Source of the DNA: a virus
Lineage: Duplodnaviria > Heunggongvirae > Uroviricota > Caudoviricetes
DNA length: 11,569 nucleotides
IMG/VR virus record: IMGVR_UViG_2671180283_000020
Reading direction: 5' to 3' (one strand)
This document shows positions 1 through 11,367 of the stretch, piece by piece. The first letter of the stretch is position 1; the number at the start of each line of letters is the position of its first letter. Both the position numbers and the translations under genes were made by a program. The notes beneath the pieces were generated by a model. The model searched no databases, was not told where the DNA came from, and saw only the letters and a program-made list of their open reading frames with translations.

Positions 1-356
1 CGGTCGCCTGCGGCAACGGCTTTCCGGCTGATGGTCGTACGGACCTTTTTACCCCGGAGAACACCGGCAAGTCCCATAACCGCCATGAGACGTGCCACTG
101 TACATCTGGCCACCCTGATTCCTTCCCGTAACAACTGACGCCAGACTTTACGCACACCGTACACCTGATGATTTTCATCGTATACGCGCTGTATCTCTCT
201 CTTCAGCCAGTCGTCGTGCTGCGCACGGGCACTGCGTTTATCCGGATGATGTCGCTGTTGCTGACAATGGTAATACGTTGACGGGGCAATATGCAGTTCG
301 CTGCATACCGGTCCGACCCCGTACTGCTCACGCAGCTTATCCAGCAGTGGCATCAT
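1..356 (-). CDS. IS3-family transposase OrfB, N-terminal part only (truncated by window edge); normally made as an OrfAB fusion by -1 frameshifting
   Basis: Reverse-complement translation from 356 gives [79 protein letters not shown]..., which matches my recollection of IS629/IS1203 OrfB. The frame is open to position 1. Confidence 0.85.
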
Positions 357-679
357 TTTTTCCAGAGGCGGTCGAACTCCGCCTTCGCAAAATAAGCGGA
401 AGCCTGGCGAAGGATATCGTTACTGCGGCGCAGTTCACGATTTTCACGTTCCAGCTCTTTCAGACGCTGACGTTCAGCGCTGGTGAGCCCACCATCACCG
501 CCCCCGGTATCCCGCTCATGCTGGCGAACCCAGACACGCAGAGTCTCCGGCGTACAGCCAATCTTTGGGGCAATGGAACAAATTGCCGCCCACTGTGAGT
601 CATATTCATCCTGACTTTCCAGAACCATACGAATCGCCCGCTGACGGACTTCGGGGGAAAAACGAGTATTTTTAGTCAT
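353..679 (-). CDS. IS3-family transposase OrfA (HTH/leucine-zipper subunit), IS629/IS1203-like
   Basis: 108-aa [26 protein letters not shown]...[36 protein letters not shown]. The stop overlaps the orfB ATGATG, and a GAGG Shine-Dalgarno sits upstream of the ATG. Confidence 0.9.
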
Positions 680-704: not shown

Positions 705-1709
705 TTAGTCTCCAGGATTTCCGGGGCGGTTCACTACGGGATCTTTGTGAATGTCGATCGGACGTTCACGGACAAGGCCAAAAATAGTCTGGCGGTCGTA
801 GCGAAGGGCATCAGGCTGTTTGCGCATTGATGCCGAGATACGCTTCCAGTCTTCGCGGTCGTTGTCGATAACTTCATTTTTTGCCCAGCGATGGATGCTG
901 CCGTCAATGTTTCCGGCATCCACATCACCAGGCCAGAGAGCGTAGGCCAGTTCGTCATCCAGTGTTTTCCATGTCTGCTTGTATTCGCGATGAATGGCAG
1001 CAATGACCGGGCTGATTTTTCCTGTTGAATTTTCACTGTACTGTTGATTGGCTCTGGCGCGTGCGAGATCAACAACAGACGTGTATTTTCCGGTTTCCTT
1101 GCGTTCACCTTCGCGACGTTTTTTCCAGATGCGCATCTCTGCCTGAATTTCGGGCCATTTGGCACCAGGCTTACATTTATGCTTAACCCACCCGATGGCA
1201 TGCAGCTTAAGCTCCGGATACATGGCGTTAACTTCTGGCATTTTCATCAACGCTTCAACGATATGTCCGTCGAATGTTGCCATGTCTTCCTGCAACAATT
1301 CCTGTGCGCTAATAACCATATCAACGGTGATGTTTTCACATGTGTCGAACTTAACCATGACAGCGTTCTGTACTTCAGGGGCCAGCTTGTCAAAAGTGAC
1401 GTTCATCGGATCGGATTCAGTCTCAACCGGGACAAAGGAAGCAGACTCCTCATCCCAGCGGTTTTCCTGCATATATTCAGCATCCCAGGAATCGAGGGCA
1501 GGGCGGGGTATACCGGGTTTATCCTCGCAGACAAGAAATTTATAAGCGCAGTCCTGAGCAGCCGGATAATGCTCCAGGAATTGCCAGTGAAATTTTGCGC
1601 GGGCGCGACGTTCATCACCGGCTTCAATGGCAGTGGCTACAGCGACGGCACCTTCTTCCTTTATTGCCTGTTCGTCCGGAATGGCGGCGCAAATAAAGAC
1701 TTTACTCAT
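705..1709 (-). pseudogene. Prophage gene in the ydfE position, 3' end disrupted by the IS insertion (native sequence 734..1709; last ~10 codons and the stop come from IS terminal sequence)
   Basis: 334-aa ORF with GAGGT Shine-Dalgarno before the ATG at 1707-1709. The reading frame runs uninterrupted across the IS terminus at 733/734 and stops inside the IS, so the native C-terminus is missing. Synteny downstream of dicB-ydfD suggests the ydfE slot. No family recognised by eye. Confidence 0.6.
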
Positions 1710-1801: not shown

Positions 1802-1993
1802 TTAAAGACCTGCCGGGATTTCGTTATTATCCTGGTGAATAACTTTATCGACCGGGTAACAGTTACCGGGAATTTTCTGTTCGGTTGCTGCAGTCACACA
1901 CTCCTGCATTGTCCTGTGAACACTGACTGCAATATCAACTGGCTCTCCGGAAACAAGAAAAACTGTCAGAACAAGTGCAAATGCTGTATTCAT
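1802..1993 (-). CDS. ydfD: YdfD-like small lysis protein (63 aa) with hydrophobic N-terminal segment
   Basis: MNTAFALVLTVFLVSGEPVDIAVSVHRTMQECVTAATEQKIPGNCYPVDKVIHQDNNEIPAGL; AAGGA Shine-Dalgarno 8 nt upstream. The start ATG overlaps the dicB stop (ATGA). Closely resembles my recollection of Qin prophage YdfD. The track ORF 1802..2047 carries an N-terminal extension that I do not accept. Confidence 0.8.
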   Translation of the reverse strand: MNTAFALVLTVFLVSGEPVDIAVSVHRTMQECVTAATEQKIPGNCYPVDKVIHQDNNEIPAGL

Positions 1994-2178
1994 TGCCAGC
2001 ATCCTTTTTGTATCGGACGTAAACGGGCCAGCATTGAAAGAATGCATATTTTATTTAATAGCTCCCGTTCGTGTTTTCTCTTGTTAATGGCATCTTCAGT
2101 AAATACAGGGTTACTGATAGTGACACCAATTTCAAAACAACCTTCAGACGTATTAACGTTTGGTAATAACGTTTCCAT
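1990..2178 (-). CDS. dicB: DicB cell-division inhibitor (62 aa)
   Basis: METLLPNVNTSEGCFEIGVTISNPVFTEDAINKRKHERELLNKICILSMLARLRPIQKGCWQ, near-identical to recalled E. coli DicB, with the same length. GAGGA Shine-Dalgarno 7 nt upstream of the ATG at 2176-2178. The track ORF (1990..2283) is extended upstream. Confidence 0.85.
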   Translation of the reverse strand: METLLPNVNTSEGCFEIGVTISNPVFTEDAINKRKHERELLNKICILSMLARLRPIQKGCWQ

Positions 2179-2352
2179 TATCGCGTCCTCAACAATGAAT
2201 TTTGTGATGCGGTGCCTGGTGCCTCCAGGTGACGTTAACCAGTTAACAATTAACGCCGGATACAGAGAATCCCCCCATAACACTGTTTTTGGTTTTAACT
2301 GTTCCGCGTGCGCTCAGCCGCATTCACCGCATCACAAAATTCACTTTAAAAA

Positions 2353-2405
2353 GGGCGGCAGAGCAGTCACGGAGTAAAACTGATACCGCCAAACGTCACC
2401 AGAAA
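2353..2405 (-). ncRNA. dicF: DicF small RNA (53 nt, ftsZ-targeting sRNA of dicB operons), followed by a T-run at 2348..2352
   Basis: Reverse complement of 2353..2405 is TTTCTGGTGACGTTTGGCGGTATCAGTTTTACTCCGTGACTGCTCTGCCGCCC, matching the DicF sequence as I remember it. It ends in a GC-rich stem plus U-tail and sits upstream of dicB on the same strand, as in Qin. Confidence 0.8.
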
Positions 2406-6308: not shown

Positions 6309-6583
6309 ATGGAGACTGTTTTTGACGCACTGAAAGCAATGGGAAAAGCCACATCCATAGAACTTGCTGCGCGCGTGAAGAAGTGCTGAACGAACTATGG
6401 GAACTGAAAAAGGCTGGTTTTGTTGATAAAAGCGCGTACACCTGGCGTGTGGCTGATAACAACGTTCAGCAGGAACAGCCAGCGCAGGCAGAACTGCCGG
6501 AAGAAACCACCACAATGAGTGAAGTTATGCAGCGCATACTGGCATTTTATCAGGGAAATGTTCGATATTTTAGACGTTACTAG
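6309..6583 (+). pseudogene. Small winged-helix-like prophage gene split by a frameshift (rem-position gene): 26-codon N-terminal ORF 6309..6389 and a C-terminal ORF in another frame reaching the stop at 6581..6583
   Basis: GGGAGG Shine-Dalgarno 6 nt upstream of the ATG at 6309. Frame 0 reads [26 protein letters not shown] then stops; the adjacent frame reads (E)[27 protein letters not shown]... from about 6380. The two pieces together look like one small DNA-binding protein. Confidence 0.5.
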
Positions 6584-6975
6584 ATTAAAGAGCATTAGTT
6601 CAGATGTGAATTGACATTGTGTGGCACAGGGTTGGGCTAGCGTGGGGGTTTGCTTTGTGTAAGAAACGGATGCTCTGCAAATTACTACTAATGCTTAATG
6701 TTAGTCTGATCTGCTCCCCGATGATTAATACACCGCTATGTTAGTAATGTCTGTAGATCGCTGTGTGTTGCATCCATCGGTTGACCCCACAGTCCAAACC
6801 AGACTGTCAGCTTTGATTCGATTCTATCTACTCAACCTGTCAGGTAATGTCTGAGCTAATACACAGAGTACGGCTATCGCGAACTTTAAGCTAGGTATCT
6901 GATACGCACCGTTCACTTGTTTGTACTTCTTGCACTGACTAGCTATCGTGCGCAGTTATTTATAGGTAATCTCCA

Positions 6976-6984
6976 GTGTATAAT
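6976..6984 (+). promoter_or_regulatory. Candidate -10 element (TATAAT at 6979..6984 with TG immediately upstream) for the 281-aa gene
   Basis: gtgTATAAT about 38 nt upstream of the ATG at 7023, followed by AGGAGG Shine-Dalgarno 6 nt before the ATG. No good -35 hexamer found. Confidence 0.4.
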
Positions 6985-7022
6985 TTTCCAACTTATGGGA
7001 GATTGTAAAACAGGAGGAATAT

Positions 7023-7868
7023 ATGAGGAAAAAATCGTTTGGACGTTGCCCGTTTGATTTCGACGAAGATGTAAAAAAAATAGCCGCGATAAATAAATAT
7101 ATCCATGCGAAATTTGAGAGGCATAAAAATAAAATAGATAACCTAAAGGGGGTGGAACAAAAATTGATGGTTTTACATTACTTTAATGTACTGAATGAAC
7201 TTAGTAATCAGGCTATATTTTCTTTGAGTACCGGAGCCTTTTCAGCATCGGAAGTATTAACTAGAGTTATAATGGAACAGGCTGCCAATCAATTTTATAT
7301 AGCAATTGATGATGGAAAAAATGCACAAGCATTACTCAAGGGTAGTAAGAAATTAGTTCATAGTAATGGGAAACGGTGGCTGGAGTGTTTAAAATCCAAA
7401 GAAATGACTAATCCAGCAGCAGATGAAAGGATTCGTATCGGAAAAGAGCTAACTGATATGTTTAATAGATTGTGGCCAAATACACCTGAATATCCTGGAA
7501 CCAAAAAGCTTTTCGAAGTAATTGGCTGGGAAACACACTATCATGCCTATTACGTCCCTCTTTGTGATTCAATACATACATTCTCTGATGATATGGCAAA
7601 TATAGTATCTCTATATAATGCAATCCAAAGCGATAAAACTACTGCTATCGAACTCACTCTTGCAGTTAAACAAGAAAATAAACGGCTGGCAATTTATAAT
7701 GTCGTAATTGCTATTGGCCTGCGGTGTGAGGCCTTAGTAAATGTATTTAACTCTTTAGGTTATCGAGATATTATAACTGAAATGGCGCCAACAATAGATG
7801 CAGTCAACCAGATTATAATTCGATATGATGATTTCGAACATTCCAGAATTTTTATTGTCAATAATTAA
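7023..7868 (+). CDS. Orphan hypothetical protein (281 aa), AT-rich, predicted largely alpha-helical; candidate defence/abortive-infection cargo gene of unknown family
   Basis: Long ORF in AT-rich DNA with a near-consensus AGGAGG Shine-Dalgarno. No Walker, HNH, HEPN or other motif recognised by eye. Located between the prophage replication module and a decayed integrase plus the Septu operon. Confidence 0.75.
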   Translation: MRKKSFGRCPFDFDEDVKKIAAINKYIHAKFERHKNKIDNLKGVEQKLMVLHYFNVLNELSNQAIFSLSTGAFSASEVLTRVIMEQAANQFYIAIDDGKNAQALLKGSKKLVHSNGKRWLECLKSKEMTNPAADERIRIGKELTDMFNRLWPNTPEYPGTKKLFEVIGWETHYHAYYVPLCDSIHTFSDDMANIVSLYNAIQSDKTTAIELTLAVKQENKRLAIYNVVIAIGLRCEALVNVFNSLGYRDIITEMAPTIDAVNQIIIRYDDFEHSRIFIVNN

Positions 7869-7936
7869 TTGGCAGAATTCGTACATGCACAACAACTAGT
7901 TATAGTTGACCTATTTCGCTCTTGAGAGACAACCAT

Positions 7937-7969
7937 ACTCAAATCTTCCACATTGCAGGAGATTTGAGT
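7937..7969 (+). other. Perfect 10-bp inverted repeat ACTCAAATCT / AGATTTGAGT with a 13-nt loop, immediately upstream of the integrase-remnant ATG
   Basis: Read directly from sequence. The loop/right arm contains GGAG (7957..7960), the Shine-Dalgarno for the ATG at 7970. No U-tract follows, so not a classical terminator. Confidence 0.5.
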
Positions 7970-8490
7970 ATGAATACGTCACCGAGGAACAAAGACAGTA
8001 TCATAGGCCCAAAAAGACCACTTCAGATATCTCATATCTGGGGGCTCCAAATCCGGCTTGAACTGGAAGGTAAAACGCGTGATTTAGCTCGGTTTCAAGC
8101 AGAGCTACGGTGCTGCAACTGAAAAACTGGCAGTCCTATCCAATTTGAGATAACCAAAGGGACAAGAGAAGCTGTTTCTGCATTGATAAAGCTTGGCAAT
8201 TTACGCAGTAAAGACTACTTGTTCCGATCTCGGGTCGGTACTAACCAACACATATCAATCCTGCAATATAACCGAATCTTTCATAGGGGGGAGAAAAGCT
8301 TGGTCTCGAAGATTCGCTTTACAGCACACATTCCATGAGAAGAACAAAACCTTGCCTTGTCTGCAAGAAAACTAAGAATCTCCGGGTGATCCAACTTCCG
8401 TTGGGCCATAAGAAAACGGAAAGCACAGTTCGTTATCTGGGTATAGAAGTTGATGATGCATTAGAGATCTCTGAATCGATCGAAGTCTAA
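7970..8490 (+). pseudogene. Decayed small tyrosine recombinase (integrase catalytic-domain family): in-frame TGA at 8120..8122 and a frame change near 8336
   Basis: Three consecutive segments translate to MNTSPRNKDSIIGPKRPLQISHIWGLQIRLELEGKTRDLARFQAELRCCN* / KTGSPIQFEITKGTREAVSALIKLGNLRSKDYLFRSRVGTNQHISILQYNRIFHRGEKSLVSKIRFTAHIP* / RRTKPCLVCKKTKNLRVIQLPLGHKKTESTVRYLGIEVDDALEISESIEV*. These carry recombinase hallmarks (TRDLA Arg, H-x-x-RRTK, LGH, VRY tyrosine). The last two segments lack any Met, so they are absent from the ORF track. Confidence 0.65.
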
Positions 8491-8902
8491 AGCTGTCAGG
8501 GCTGCAGCAGCAGCCCTGTGCCAAGAGCGTACCAATATATGTCTCAAAAAATTGGGCACAGGTCAATATCAATACCAACAACTCTGATTGTGCTCATGTG
8601 ATTTACTCCTGTAGAAAACGCAGACAGTAAAAATATTTCACTGGCTGCTTCAGACAGGGCGTCCATCATATCATTACATAACAATAGCGGGGCACGATAT
8701 CTAGACATGCAGCAACGATGGACATAGAATGAGTACAATCAAAAGCATGTTTAACTACTTTAATTTAAAAATCTTAGAATCTTAGGTGTAGAGTTCAATA
8801 CTTAGTTACATACCCTTTTGAAAGCATCACAAATCATAACTATGAGCCTGTTAAAGGCATAGGTATTCTTAATTAAGAGCATTTTAATGAGAGAAAAATA
8901 AA

Positions 8903-10276
8903 ATGAAAAGACTATATTATACCCATCATGATAGTCGAACCTTAAAACTTGCTATAGAAGGTGATGTTTCTGATAATGCGAATATTTTTACAGTAATTGT
9001 AGGTAAAAATGGCGTTGGAAAAAGCAGATTGTTATCTCAGATTGCTAAAGACTGTATTCAAGATGTTCATTTCTTGAAAACTTTTAATCCATTATTTGAC
9101 AGAGAAATAACACCAAAGTTAATTGCCGTATCTACCAGCCCATTCGATAAATTCCCTCCAGGGCGTAGGTCATTAAATCACCAAAGGAAAGAAAATAATT
9201 ATCGCTATGTGGGTATGCGTGGAGAAGGCCCCTTCGGCGTATCAAATGCCGTATCCCTTTTATCTTCAGCAGCGAGAGGTTGGCTAGAGAAACTTGCTTA
9301 TTCAGAAAATCCTGCAAATTTACTCGATGTTTTTCATTCTATTGATTTTGAGCCCCATATAGAGTTTGTATTTAAACCAACTTACAACGGACCGGACACT
9401 CCTGACTATAACTTCATTGGTGTATATTCAGATGAGATATTAACGGAAGTTAAGGAGTTATATTTAAAATACAATATAAAAATTGACAGGAAGAATATTG
9501 AGAGTCTCTTAAAGTTAAACTCCGAATCACGTCATGATATTTACGAAGCACTGGTTGAAATTAATCGATTTGAACCTGAACGTAGGGCTGTAACCTTGTC
9601 AGTCGATTTTACCAATGGTGAAACATTGGTTGGCTCGACTTATGCGAATAATTATTTTTCTAGATCAATTCTTAAACTTATGAACGCTGGCTTCATGAGA
9701 TTGATGGATATGCGACTCATAAAAAAAAGCTATGGTCCCATGTCACTTAAACGTGCGAGCTCGGGAGAACAATGTTTATTAGTGATGTTGCTTGGAATTG
9801 CAGGGCATATAACTGATGGTTCTATAATATTAATTGATGAACCGGAAATAAGCTTGCATCCTCGATGGCAGGAAGAGTTTATCATTATGTTAACAAAAGC
9901 ATTTTTAACTTACTCAGGTTGTCAATTCATAATTGCAACTCATTCACCACAAATAATATCCAATTTGCCGAATAAAGGTTGTTATATAACATCTTTGTCG
10001 AAAAGTTATCTTTATAAAGCAAAATACTTTAGCAACCGGTCTGCAGACTATCAACTTGCGGAACTATTTGATGCCCCTGGCATTATGAATGAATACATTG
10101 CCAGGTTAGCTTTCAATTTACTTTCAAAAGTTAAGACTGCTAAGTTAGTAACAGATGATAATTGGCGTGAATTAAAACAACTCCAACTTCTCCTTGAAAA
10201 CGTTAATAGTAATGACCCTATTAATGAACTCGTAAATTCCGTATCTCAGGTGTGTGAAATTTATGCCAAAAATTAA
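8903..10276 (+). CDS. ptuA: Septu-like PtuA: ABC/OLD-type (AAA_15/AAA_21-like) ATPase, 457 aa
   Basis: Walker A VIVGKNGVGKSRLL near the N-terminus, ABC-signature-like SSGEQ, Walker B IILIDEPEISLHP, H-loop IIATHSP. AT-rich gene that overlaps the downstream HNH gene. Confidence 0.8.
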   Translation: MKRLYYTHHDSRTLKLAIEGDVSDNANIFTVIVGKNGVGKSRLLSQIAKDCIQDVHFLKTFNPLFDREITPKLIAVSTSPFDKFPPGRRSLNHQRKENNYRYVGMRGEGPFGVSNAVSLLSSAARGWLEKLAYSENPANLLDVFHSIDFEPHIEFVFKPTYNGPDTPDYNFIGVYSDEILTEVKELYLKYNIKIDRKNIESLLKLNSESRHDIYEALVEINRFEPERRAVTLSVDFTNGETLVGSTYANNYFSRSILKLMNAGFMRLMDMRLIKKSYGPMSLKRASSGEQCLLVMLLGIAGHITDGSIILIDEPEISLHPRWQEEFIIMLTKAFLTYSGCQFIIATHSPQIISNLPNKGCYITSLSKSYLYKAKYFSNRSADYQLAELFDAPGIMNEYIARLAFNLLSKVKTAKLVTDDNWRELKQLQLLLENVNSNDPINELVNSVSQVCEIYAKN

Positions 10277-10898
10277 AAATCCAATTAGATTCAGCGCAGA
10301 GTCATTAGATATTATTGAGAAAAAATTGTCTTCTCCAGATTTTAAGCATACCAACTGGGGAGATGATGATTTGCAAGTTCTCCGTGCAGAAATTAGAAAT
10401 CATTACAGAGAAGAACAAAAGCTAGAATGTGTATATTGTCATGAGCCTATTGGGGTAAGAGCTGCACAAGCTGCTCCTATAGAGCATATTGTGCCAAAAT
10501 CTCAATATCTATGTTTTATTTTTGAACCTAAGAATCTATGTGTAGTATGTCCTGACTGCAATGAATTCAAAGGTAAAAATGAAGTGTTATTTGAACCCGT
10601 AATAAATGGGGGGCGGCGCAAAAACTATCCAACTGCATCTGCATCATTTCGCATCGTTCATCCACATATAGATGATTATGAGATGCATATTATAAAAGCA
10701 AATCGTGTTTATGTGGACAAAACACCTAAAGGGCACTATACCATTGGAATATGTAAACTAAATAGATTTTTTCATTATTTTGGGATGTGTGATGAATTTG
10801 TTAATGATGCAAAAATTGCTGAGGCAAATGAAAATTTTTTCAAAAAAGGTAGTATTACTACTAATGAATTATTGGATGATGACATTCATTTGATTTAA
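10263..10898 (+). CDS. ptuB: Septu-like PtuB: HNH endonuclease, 211 aa from the ATG at 10263 (214 aa if the GTG at 10254 is used)
   Basis: HNH-type motif CVYCHEP...APIEHIVPKSQ...CVVCPDCNEFKGKN...VHPHID (Cys pairs plus His/Asn/His). Overlaps the ptuA 3' end by 14-23 nt, implying one operon. Confidence 0.8.
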   Translation: MPKIKNPIRFSAESLDIIEKKLSSPDFKHTNWGDDDLQVLRAEIRNHYREEQKLECVYCHEPIGVRAAQAAPIEHIVPKSQYLCFIFEPKNLCVVCPDCNEFKGKNEVLFEPVINGGRRKNYPTASASFRIVHPHIDDYEMHIIKANRVYVDKTPKGHYTIGICKLNRFFHYFGMCDEFVNDAKIAEANENFFKKGSITTNELLDDDIHLI

Positions 10899-11007
10899 CT
10901 ATGAATTATTATATTGTAAAGTAATCAGGTAAGATATGTTAGACAGTGAGACTATTGCCTTACAGAATTCATTATTCTTATGGATCGCCTTTCTGACTGA
11001 TTTCATA

Positions 11008-11036: not shown

Positions 11037-11094
11037 GGCTGCGGGTGCTTGAGGCTATCTGTCTCAGGCATGAACACCAAAGGCAGATAGAGAA

Positions 11095-11165
11095 AAGCCC
11101 CAGTTAACATTACGCGTCCTGCAAGACGCTTAACATTAATCTGAGGCCAATTTCATGCTAGACAC
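11095..11165 (-). ncRNA. sok: Putative Sok-like antisense RNA (boundaries approximate)
   Basis: Inferred from the minus-strand promoter at 11170..11198 and from the hok/sok paradigm, where Sok is antisense to the mok translation-initiation region. Neither end is clearly defined by a terminator in the sequence. Confidence 0.3.
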
Positions 11166-11169
11166 ATGT

Positions 11170-11198
11170 AGGTTAGCCTCTTACGTGCCGGAAGGCAA
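11170..11198 (-). promoter_or_regulatory. Candidate sok promoter on the minus strand (-35 TTGCCT, 17-bp spacer, -10 TAACCT)
   Basis: Reverse complement of 11193..11198 is TTGCCT and of 11170..11175 is TAACCT. It sits between the upstream ATG at 11155 and the hok ATG, the arrangement I recall for the R1 sok promoter (TTGCGC / TATCCT). Confidence 0.45.
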
Positions 11199-11211
11199 GG
11201 AGAAGCAGGCT

Positions 11212-11367
11212 ATGAAGCAGCAAAAGGCGATGTTAATCGCCCTGATCGTCATCTGTTTAACCGTCATAGTGACGACACTGGTAACGAGGAAAGACCTCTG
11301 CGAGGTACGAATCCGAACCGGCCAGACGGAGGTCGCTGTCTTCACAGCTTACGAACCTGAGGAGTAA
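11212..11367 (+). CDS. hokD: Hok/Gef-family type I toxin (51 aa), HokD/RelF-like
   Basis: MKQQKAMLIALIVICLTVIVTTLVTRKDLCEVRIRTGQTEVAVFTAYEPEE with AAGGAG Shine-Dalgarno 9 nt upstream. Near-identical to recalled HokD (RelF). The track ORF 11155..11367 is an in-frame upstream extension from the mok-equivalent ATG. Confidence 0.85.
   Translation: MKQQKAMLIALIVICLTVIVTTLVTRKDLCEVRIRTGQTEVAVFTAYEPEE

Follow-up and report, generated by a model that had tools for sequence, protein, structure and literature searches.

The genes ptuA and ptuB of an E. coli lambdoid prophage very probably encode an anti-phage defence system of the stand-alone Septu kind (type I), which this prophage carries as accessory cargo. 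They are found in a stretch of 11,569 nucleotides (IMG/VR record IMGVR_UViG_2671180283_000020, hereafter the window), which corresponds to a lambda-like prophage of E. coli and is 99.8-100% identical to sequences of EPEC E2348/69 and other strains. Among 5426 complete genomes, 19 carry ptuAB (E2348/69 and 18 other E. coli). The Septu family is already known and the pair is covered by existing PADLOC profiles. In RefSeq, the products are named 'AAA family ATPase' (ptuA) and 'HNH endonuclease' (ptuB).

Table 1. Positions in the window of ptuAB and of the surrounding features of the cargo block.
Feature	Position	Strand	Remarks
Cargo block	6456..11006		4.55 kb, 37% GC; limits are homology breakpoints relative to loci L009 and L010
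DUF5677 gene	7023-7868		In the cargo block; from annotation
Tyrosine recombinase pseudogene	~7970-8490		In the cargo block; frameshifted, RefSeq annotation
Intergenic region upstream of ptuA	8582..8902	+	AT-rich
Candidate sigma-70-like promoters	8702-8730, 8751-8780	+	Upstream of ptuA
ptuA	8903..10276	+	457 aa; from the list of open reading frames; identical to RefSeq WP_000827089.1
ptuA/ptuB overlap	10263..10276	+	14 nt; from the sequence
ptuB	10263..10898	+	211 aa from ATG; from the list of open reading frames; identical to RefSeq WP_001124204.1

The initial annotation proposed an ATPase gene followed by an overlapping HNH gene, and both open reading frames are intact, co-oriented and found at the coordinates of Table 1. 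Judged from sequence, the pair is not due to chance, since long open reading frames are found in DNA of 35% GC and the products have thousands of homologues. The ATG of ptuB appears preferable to an alternative GTG start at position 10254, because it is the RefSeq start, gives a conserved MPxI N-terminus and is preceded, 11 nt before, by a Shine-Dalgarno-like AGGTG. The overlap of the two genes is consistent with translational coupling. A Shine-Dalgarno-like GAGAGA precedes the ATG of ptuA. The number of promoter-like sites upstream of this gene does not exceed the expectation from shuffled sequences, and both promoters of Table 1 are given as candidates only. No intrinsic terminator was found downstream of ptuB by a terminator scan.

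All of the ATPase motifs initially attributed to PtuA were located: Walker A GKNGVGKS (aa 34-41, including K40), signature SSGEQ (S286-Q290), Walker B LIDEPE (aa 310-315, including D312 and E313) and H-loop ATHSP (aa 345-349, including H347). H319 is also listed among the ATPase residues. The four motifs are invariant across 48 PtuA homologues, K40, D312, E313 and H347 showing no variation. The PADLOC PtuA profile PDLC00283 matches the protein with E=1.2e-165 and 550 bits, residues 2-455 being aligned on profile positions 3-447 of 448. Two Pfam domains, AAA_21 (74 bits) and AAA_15 (62 bits), are each above their cut-off. The AF2 monomer model (pLDDT 82.9) includes a C-terminal extension of three helices (~392-456), and its top structural matches are PtuA chains.

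PtuB is predicted to be a Cys4 zinc-finger HNH nuclease of the H-N-N type (catalytic residues H75, N91 and N100; zinc finger C56/C59/C96/C99). In an alignment of 50 sequences, C56, C59, H75 (within EHIxPK), N91, C96 and C99 are invariant and N100 is nearly so; an HPHxxD block is conserved at 133-137. The CxxCH...N...H signature that had been read in this protein is thus only approximately correct: the His directly following CxxC (H60) is not conserved. The PADLOC PtuB profile PDLC00325 matches with E=1.1e-83 and 278 bits (positions 2-205 of 213), and Pfam HNH with 23.9 bits (cut-off 21.4). Since a PDB sequence search with PtuB gave no match, its link to solved PtuB required structure prediction. 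The AF2 monomer model (pLDDT 82.4) has three C-terminal helices (155-195); its top Foldseek match is 8eea_G, the PtuB of an E. coli Septu (probability 1.0, TM 0.50), followed by retron PtuBs. Both models therefore resemble solved PtuA and PtuB. The three C-terminal helices modelled for PtuA and the three of PtuB are compatible with the nine-helix PtuA2-PtuB bundle that has been described (PMC12819146).

The PtuA/PtuB architecture initially recognised is hence borne out by full-length matches to both PADLOC profiles. In the profile assignment, a check set beforehand, the ATPase was attributed to PtuA and the nuclease to PtuB, not to another family. The conservation of the two genes as neighbours gave the same picture. 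In 12 of the 12 non-E. coli loci examined (six, all from Pseudomonas, from a contig scan, supplemented by look-ups of exact proteins), the genes are adjacent and overlapping, a PtuB homologue starting 14-17 nt before the PtuA stop. These loci belong to Pseudomonas spp., Klebsiella variicola and Vibrio fluvialis, with PtuA identity down to 40%, and are often located beside integrases or within prophages. The lineage is common in Proteobacteria, and the pair is kept in chromosomal islands and plasmids of many genera.

In the window, the cargo block takes the place of what related prophages carry between the replication P/DUF1627 genes and hok/sok. The GC content of ptuA (35.2%) and ptuB (33.2%) is lower than that of the flanking backbone (48-51%), in agreement with the AT richness noted at the outset. 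The recombinase remnant reported beside the pair corresponds to the RefSeq pseudogene of Table 1; its concatenated fragments show a weak, sub-threshold match to the C-terminal part of Phage_integrase (E=0.0017), and single fragments have no Pfam match. The GC contrast, this remnant and the homology breakpoints support the proposal that ptuAB are horizontally acquired cargo. A search for att-like direct or inverted repeats flanking 6456-11006 gave only short matches at chance level. A role of the DUF5677 gene as third Septu component was considered and rejected: the gene does not accompany ptuAB in any other genus examined and has no PADLOC match. This gene and the recombinase remnant are outside the Septu system. 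In other strains, the same slot between the replication genes and hok/sok is occupied either by a Ser/Thr kinase and a PP2C phosphatase or by a methyltransferase block. The slot is a variable cargo site of lambdoid prophages.

The retron-coupled variant had been dismissed in the initial annotation for want of a reverse transcriptase gene. In identical genomes, the annotation lists no reverse transcriptase within 12 kb of ptuAB, no retron RNA family of Rfam is found at gathering scores, and the NCBIfam models for retron Ec78 PtuA and PtuB give 66 and 30 bits, far below their cut-offs (500 and 150). Because neither reverse transcriptase nor retron RNA is found, the pair is classed as a stand-alone Septu type I and not as a retron-coupled system. 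These weak NCBIfam matches could also be read as the trace of orphaned retron type I-A effectors, or the pair could belong to another family associating an ABC ATPase with a nuclease (PARIS AriAB, the PADLOC candidate PDC-M01 or AbiL). AriA is indeed the top PDB sequence match of PtuA; the PDC-M01A, AriA, AbiLi and ATPase_I-A profiles also match PtuA, and PDC-M01B and HNH_I-A match PtuB. These matches are, however, partial and restricted in PtuA to the stretch from Walker B to H-loop, and no non-Septu family exceeds 97 bits, against 550 for the PtuA profile. PDC-M01A reaches at most 97 bits and PDC-M01B at most 29 (278 for the PtuB profile), whereas the AriA profiles match only residues 225-354 with 78 bits or less, and the partner gene encodes an HNH nuclease, not the TOPRIM protein AriB. 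An origin in another family or in a retron is thus very unlikely and largely refuted by the score ratios.

Two other explanations accept the proteins as they are and assign them another role. The pair could be mainly a toxin-antitoxin-like module stabilising the cargo block (nuclease toxin restrained by the ATPase), with an incidental anti-phage effect. When uncoupled from its retron, over-expressed PtuAB is toxic (PMC12640716), Pfam describes AAA_21 as a 'putative AbiEii toxin' domain and the block adjoins the hok/sok addiction locus. This explanation is nevertheless improbable: those stand-alone Septu systems that have been characterised protect against phages and require both enzymatic activities to do so (PMC13096335), and the occurrence of the pair in islands and plasmids of many genera indicates no tie to one element. 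Addiction and defence by abortive infection are, in addition, not mutually exclusive. It is exceedingly unlikely that the genes serve the phage life cycle, for example as an HNH endonuclease and an ATPase involved in DNA packaging or homing, instead of being host-protective cargo. HNH endonucleases are frequent in phage genomes, and PtuB has a full-length match to phrog_36683 and weak ones to several PHROGs labelled 'HNH endonuclease'. Yet ptuAB map to the early/nin region, a long way from the terminase, are missing from related prophages that share the backbone, have a GC content foreign to that backbone and are also found outside prophages; no close match was found among 50,697 phage records. 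The stand-alone Septu type I reading is retained below.

Septu was reportedly first described in Bacillus, by Doron et al. in 2018. The PtuAB pair of a Bacillus thuringiensis plasmid shows 30% (PtuA, 393 residues) and 27% (PtuB, 181 residues) identity with the pair studied here, and the tblastn alignment spans 97% of PtuA. The shared motifs are ASSGE, LIDEPE-S-HP-WQ and ATHS in PtuA, and CxYC, IEHIxPK, CxxCN and IVHP in PtuB. The two-gene layout is the same as in Bacillus Septu type I (ABC-type AAA_21 ATPase, then overlapping HNH gene), without structural difference; the pair of the window is a proteobacterial sub-lineage located on a lambdoid prophage, whereas the Bacillus type is located on a plasmid or chromosome.

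The Septu systems studied in E. coli are more distant. Structural alignments give 12-23% identity to solved PtuA and PtuB. The Septu of E. coli ATCC 25922 (EcSeptu; structures 8EE4, 8EE7, 8EEA and 8SUX, Li et al. 2024, as relayed by PMC12640716 and PMC12819146) is likewise stand-alone, without retron. Its proteins have 465 and 243 aa (457 and 211 aa here) and share 16-21% identity with the present ones, phmmer aligning only the stretch from Walker B to H-loop. Septu EcB88 of E. coli JBBDAGI-19-0041 is also a stand-alone PtuAB, whose defence needs both enzymatic activities (PMC13096335). Its catalytic residues K43, D316, H75 and N91 correspond here to K40, D312, H75 and N91, and the Walker B context is DEVDMHLH in EcB88 versus DEPEISLH here. 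Against EcB88 sequences that were machine-read from a supplementary PDF and are approximate, BLAST gave for PtuA only a local match (28% over 149 aa) and for PtuB no significant match. By BLAST, the present pair is farther from the PtuAB of EcB88, ATCC 25922 and Eco7 than these three are from each other; identities are approximate, the three sets being machine-read from that PDF and its garbled first alignment blocks left out. The effectors of type I-A retrons (retron-Eco7/Ec78 and Eco4/Ec83 PtuAB, 'Septu type II') differ in being accompanied by a reverse transcriptase and an msr/msd RNA, and their PtuA is about 90 aa longer (542-552 aa). The initial suggestion of a divergent subtype holds in that the pair is far from the studied E. 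coli Septu, with local BLAST matches only. It does not hold as a new subtype, since the pair falls inside an existing PADLOC PtuA/PtuB sub-profile that is common in Proteobacteria.

A mechanism may be proposed by analogy with the characterised systems. The ABC-type ATPase PtuA would oligomerise, possibly as the 6:2 PtuA:PtuB complex of EcSeptu (as relayed by PMC12640716 and PMC12819146), and its C-terminal helical extension would keep the PtuB HNH nuclease inactive under restraint by ATP. When a heterologous phage infects the cell, a phage protein and/or a drop in ATP would be the signal that frees the nuclease. The freed nuclease would cut nucleic acid, phage replication would stop and the infected lysogen would be growth-arrested. 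The in vivo target of Septu EcB88 and retron-Eco7 is tRNA-Tyr, in its variable loop (PMC13096335, PMC12640716); EcB88 cuts it on infection by T6, with an abortive-infection-like outcome (PMC13096335). The in vitro target of the E. coli Septu is supercoiled DNA, which is nicked (as relayed by PMC12640716 and PMC12819146). For the present PtuAB, tRNA and DNA may be regarded as about equally likely targets. No literature on Septu in E2348/69 and no experiment on this pair or its close relatives was found.

The signature motif of PtuA is the canonical SSGEQ, whereas the PtuA of EcSeptu has a Leu at the Gln position (PMC12819146; machine-read alignment) and the solved protein has no ATPase activity (PMC12819146). 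Because of these differences, the ATP-inhibition model of EcSeptu may not transfer unchanged. The invariant signature Gln, the full catalytic ABC set and the Cys4 zinc-finger HNH with its HPHxxD block raise the possibility, a rather doubtful one, that the PDLC00283/PDLC00325 lineage differs in regulation from the solved E. coli Septu. ATP hydrolysis could in that case license the nuclease, instead of ATP binding simply inhibiting it, and the lineage could have its own trigger or target, unlike tRNA-Tyr or plasmid nicking.

The value of these results lies mostly in correct annotation, a clear Septu system being hidden under generic RefSeq names. As a Septu branch with a canonical ABC signature motif, the pair offers a reasonable comparison for studies of ATP control in Septu. 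A prophage-borne Septu in the reference strain EPEC E2348/69 and in 18 other complete E. coli genomes could shape the phage susceptibility of these bacteria, an effect that would be relevant to phage typing or therapy.

ptuA (ABC-type ATPase) and ptuB (HNH nuclease) form a Septu type I system with no feature outside the family definition. The initial annotation is borne out both in what it observed and in how it interpreted it: the two co-oriented ORFs lie exactly where it had placed a Septu-like pair, and the PADLOC search that it proposed matches both proteins end to end with Septu type I profiles at very high scores (PtuA, PDLC00283: E=1.2e-165, 550 bits, profile positions 3-447 of 448; PtuB, PDLC00325: E=1.1e-83, 278 bits, profile positions 2-205 of 213). 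The best non-Septu PADLOC profiles (PDC-M01A, AriA, AbiLi, retron ATPase_I-A) give at most 97 bits, in the Walker B to H-loop region only. Pfam domains are AAA_21 and AAA_15 (PtuA) and HNH (PtuB). Identical proteins are already present in RefSeq under generic names, and the pair belongs to a known, well-populated Septu sub-lineage. The coordinates of the features are collected below.

Features of the window and conserved motifs of PtuA (aa, residues of the protein)
Feature	Position	Strand	Remarks
IS3-family element end, truncated exonuclease gene	1-733 and 705-1709	-	truncates a prophage exonuclease gene
ALIL frameshift pseudoknot	282-398		within the IS3-family end; Rfam
IS3-family orfA	353-679		within the IS end
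dicB	1990-2283	-	cell-division inhibitor gene
DicF	2353-2404	-	antisense sRNA; Rfam, 76.7 bits
DUF5677 gene	7023-7868	+	281 aa; Pfam DUF5677 E=3.4e-9; phrog_4167 (unknown function), full length
Tyrosine recombinase pseudogene	~7970-8490	+	frameshifted; between the DUF5677 gene and ptuA
ptuA	8903..10276	+	ORF, 457 aa
ptuB	10254 (GTG) or 10263 (ATG)..10898	+	ORF, 214 aa from GTG, 211 aa from ATG
hok/sok	11043-11367	+	type I toxin-antitoxin locus, immediately right of the cargo block
sok RNA	11043-11217		Rfam, 117 bits
Hok ORF	11155-11367	+	Pfam HOK_GEF, E=1.3e-23
Walker A, GKNGVGKS	aa 34-41		invariant, 48 homologues
Signature, SSGEQ	aa 286-290		invariant, 48 homologues
Walker B, LIDEPE	aa 310-315		invariant, 48 homologues
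H-loop, ATHSP	aa 345-349		invariant, 48 homologues

The start of ptuB is likely the ATG at 10263, because it is the RefSeq start, gives an MPxI N-terminus conserved among 50 homologues and is preceded, 11 nt ahead, by a Shine-Dalgarno-like AGGTG; the overlap with ptuA is therefore 14 nt. The catalytic residues are intact. All four ATPase motifs initially annotated are found in PtuA. In PtuB, C56, C59, H75 (within EHIxPK), N91, C96 and C99 are invariant and N100 nearly so, which makes the protein a Cys4 zinc-finger HNH of the H-N-N type. The 'CxxCH...N...H' signature first proposed needs a slight amendment, as homologues do not conserve the His that immediately follows the first CxxC. Downstream of the HNH core there is a block of strong conservation, F129-x-I-x-H133-P134-H135-x-x-D137...H142 (aa 129-142, window ~10647-10688), which may serve as a second site for metal or substrate; Bacillus thuringiensis PtuB has IVHPYLD, and a similar block, IHCHIRD, is found in the machine-read ATCC 25922 PtuB.

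The experimentally studied Septu systems of E. coli are only distant relatives. In phmmer searches against the PDB, the PtuA alignment is confined to the Walker B to H-loop stretch and PtuB gives no alignment; identity to solved structures in structural alignments is 12-23%. In BLAST comparisons with approximate sequences (machine-read from the supplement of PMC13096335), PtuA is farther from the PtuA of EcB88 (E. coli JBBDAGI-19-0041), ATCC 25922 (EcSeptu, 8EEA) and retron-Eco7 than these three are from each other. A closer relative is a B. thuringiensis plasmid pair that has the same motifs and matches PDLC00265 and PDLC00312 (PtuA, 30% identity over 393 residues; PtuB, 27% over 181 residues); in tblastn, its PtuA covers 97% of the window PtuA at 26.9% identity. 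Septu was reportedly first described in Bacillus (by Doron and co-workers, in 2018). The signature motif is canonical in the window PtuA, whereas the solved stand-alone Septu PtuA has Leu at the Gln position and no ATPase activity (PMC12819146).

AlphaFold2 models built on homologue alignments are confident (pLDDT 82.9, PtuA; 82.4, PtuB). In Foldseek searches against the PDB, the top six matches of the PtuB model are all PtuB chains (best, 8eea_G of the E. coli Septu complex: probability 1.0, TM 0.50, 16% identity), followed by Cas9 HNH domains; the PtuA model ranks retron-Eco7/Ec78 and Ec83 PtuA before Septu PtuA and AriA. The predicted structures are therefore in accord with the Septu assignment, which is decided by the sequence profiles. 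Both models end in three helices (PtuA 392-456, PtuB 155-195), which would fit the published nine-helix bundle, where one PtuB is clamped by the C-terminal extensions of two PtuA (PMC12819146).

As the initial annotation proposed, the pair is not the retron-associated form, since the NCBIfam retron-Ec78 equivalogs score far below their cut-offs (PtuA, 66 vs 500 bits; PtuB, 30 vs 150 bits). In genomes that share the identical sequence, the annotation shows no reverse transcriptase within 12 kb, and Rfam finds no retron RNA in the window, its sole matches being the ALIL pseudoknot, DicF and sok. A third component, the DUF5677 protein, was considered: its gene shares the AT-rich cargo block with ptuAB, and all E. 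coli copies examined have it linked to both ptuAB and the integrase remnant. It is beside ptuAB in none of 12 non-E. coli loci (six Pseudomonas species by genome scan; P. aeruginosa, Klebsiella variicola and Vibrio fluvialis by exact-protein look-ups); it was therefore rejected, and the system is one of two genes. The DUF5677 protein has no PADLOC match and its gene could be separate cargo.

The two-gene arrangement is coupled: in 12/12 of these loci, a PtuB homologue (44-84% identical) starts 14-17 nt before the PtuA stop codon, so that the pair is conserved as neighbours, a point on which the initial annotation had made its reading depend. Members of the PtuA family number in the thousands and are spread over the Proteobacteria (among them Klebsiella, Dickeya, Cronobacter, Pseudomonas, Vibrio, Stenotrophomonas, Lysobacter and Methylobacter); PtuB homologues occur in the same taxa. 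The contexts of the non-E. coli loci are mobile or island-like: integrases and a protein kinase nearby (P. aeruginosa), a prophage with lysozyme and tail genes (Klebsiella), integrase fragments (Vibrio).

The window is an E. coli lambdoid prophage. ptuAB is carried by only 19 of 5426 complete E. coli genomes and has no close match among 50,697 phage records. The genes run in the order cI-like repressor, Cro/DicC, YdaT, DnaT-like, replication P, truncated DUF1627, DUF5677, recombinase pseudogene, ptuA, ptuB, hokD/sok; DicF and dicB, of the Qin/Rac-type prophage immunity region, are present as well. Homology to intact prophages begins at ~734; the IS is at exactly this position in none of the complete genomes examined. 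Comparison with two related prophages (L009, L010) delimits a variable cargo block at ~6456-11006, around which no flanking (att-like) repeats were found. The AT-richness of the ptuAB pair relative to the flanking backbone, noted initially, is borne out (ptuA 35.2% and ptuB 33.2% GC vs 48-51%), as is the recombinase remnant, which suggests that the block was once part of an integrative element. Lambdoid prophages that are otherwise 95-98% identical differ in what they carry in the slot between replication P/DUF1627 and hok/sok (O45:H2 FWSEC0003: DUF1627-DUF977 and a Ser/Thr kinase with a PP2C phosphatase; JNEC-KY178: a SAM methyltransferase block); this slot has the look of a hotspot for cargo or defence genes. 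The host prophages have differing integrases and chromosomal sites (by yccA/tusE in one strain, potC in another); in strain 2013C-4974, where IS3 has removed the left arm of the prophage, the block persists.

By analogy with published systems, PtuA would oligomerise and hold PtuB (PtuA:PtuB 6:2 in the E. coli complex, as cited in PMC12640716 and PMC12819146). The nuclease would be restrained by ATP binding and activated by phage proteins and/or a drop in ATP (PMC12640716, PMC12819146). Reported targets vary by system: the tRNA-Tyr variable loop is cleaved in vivo by Septu EcB88 and retron-Eco7, ssDNA is cleaved by retron-Eco4 PtuAB and plasmid DNA is nicked by E. coli Septu (PMC13096335, PMC12640716). 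The outcome for the host would be akin to abortive infection (PMC13096335).
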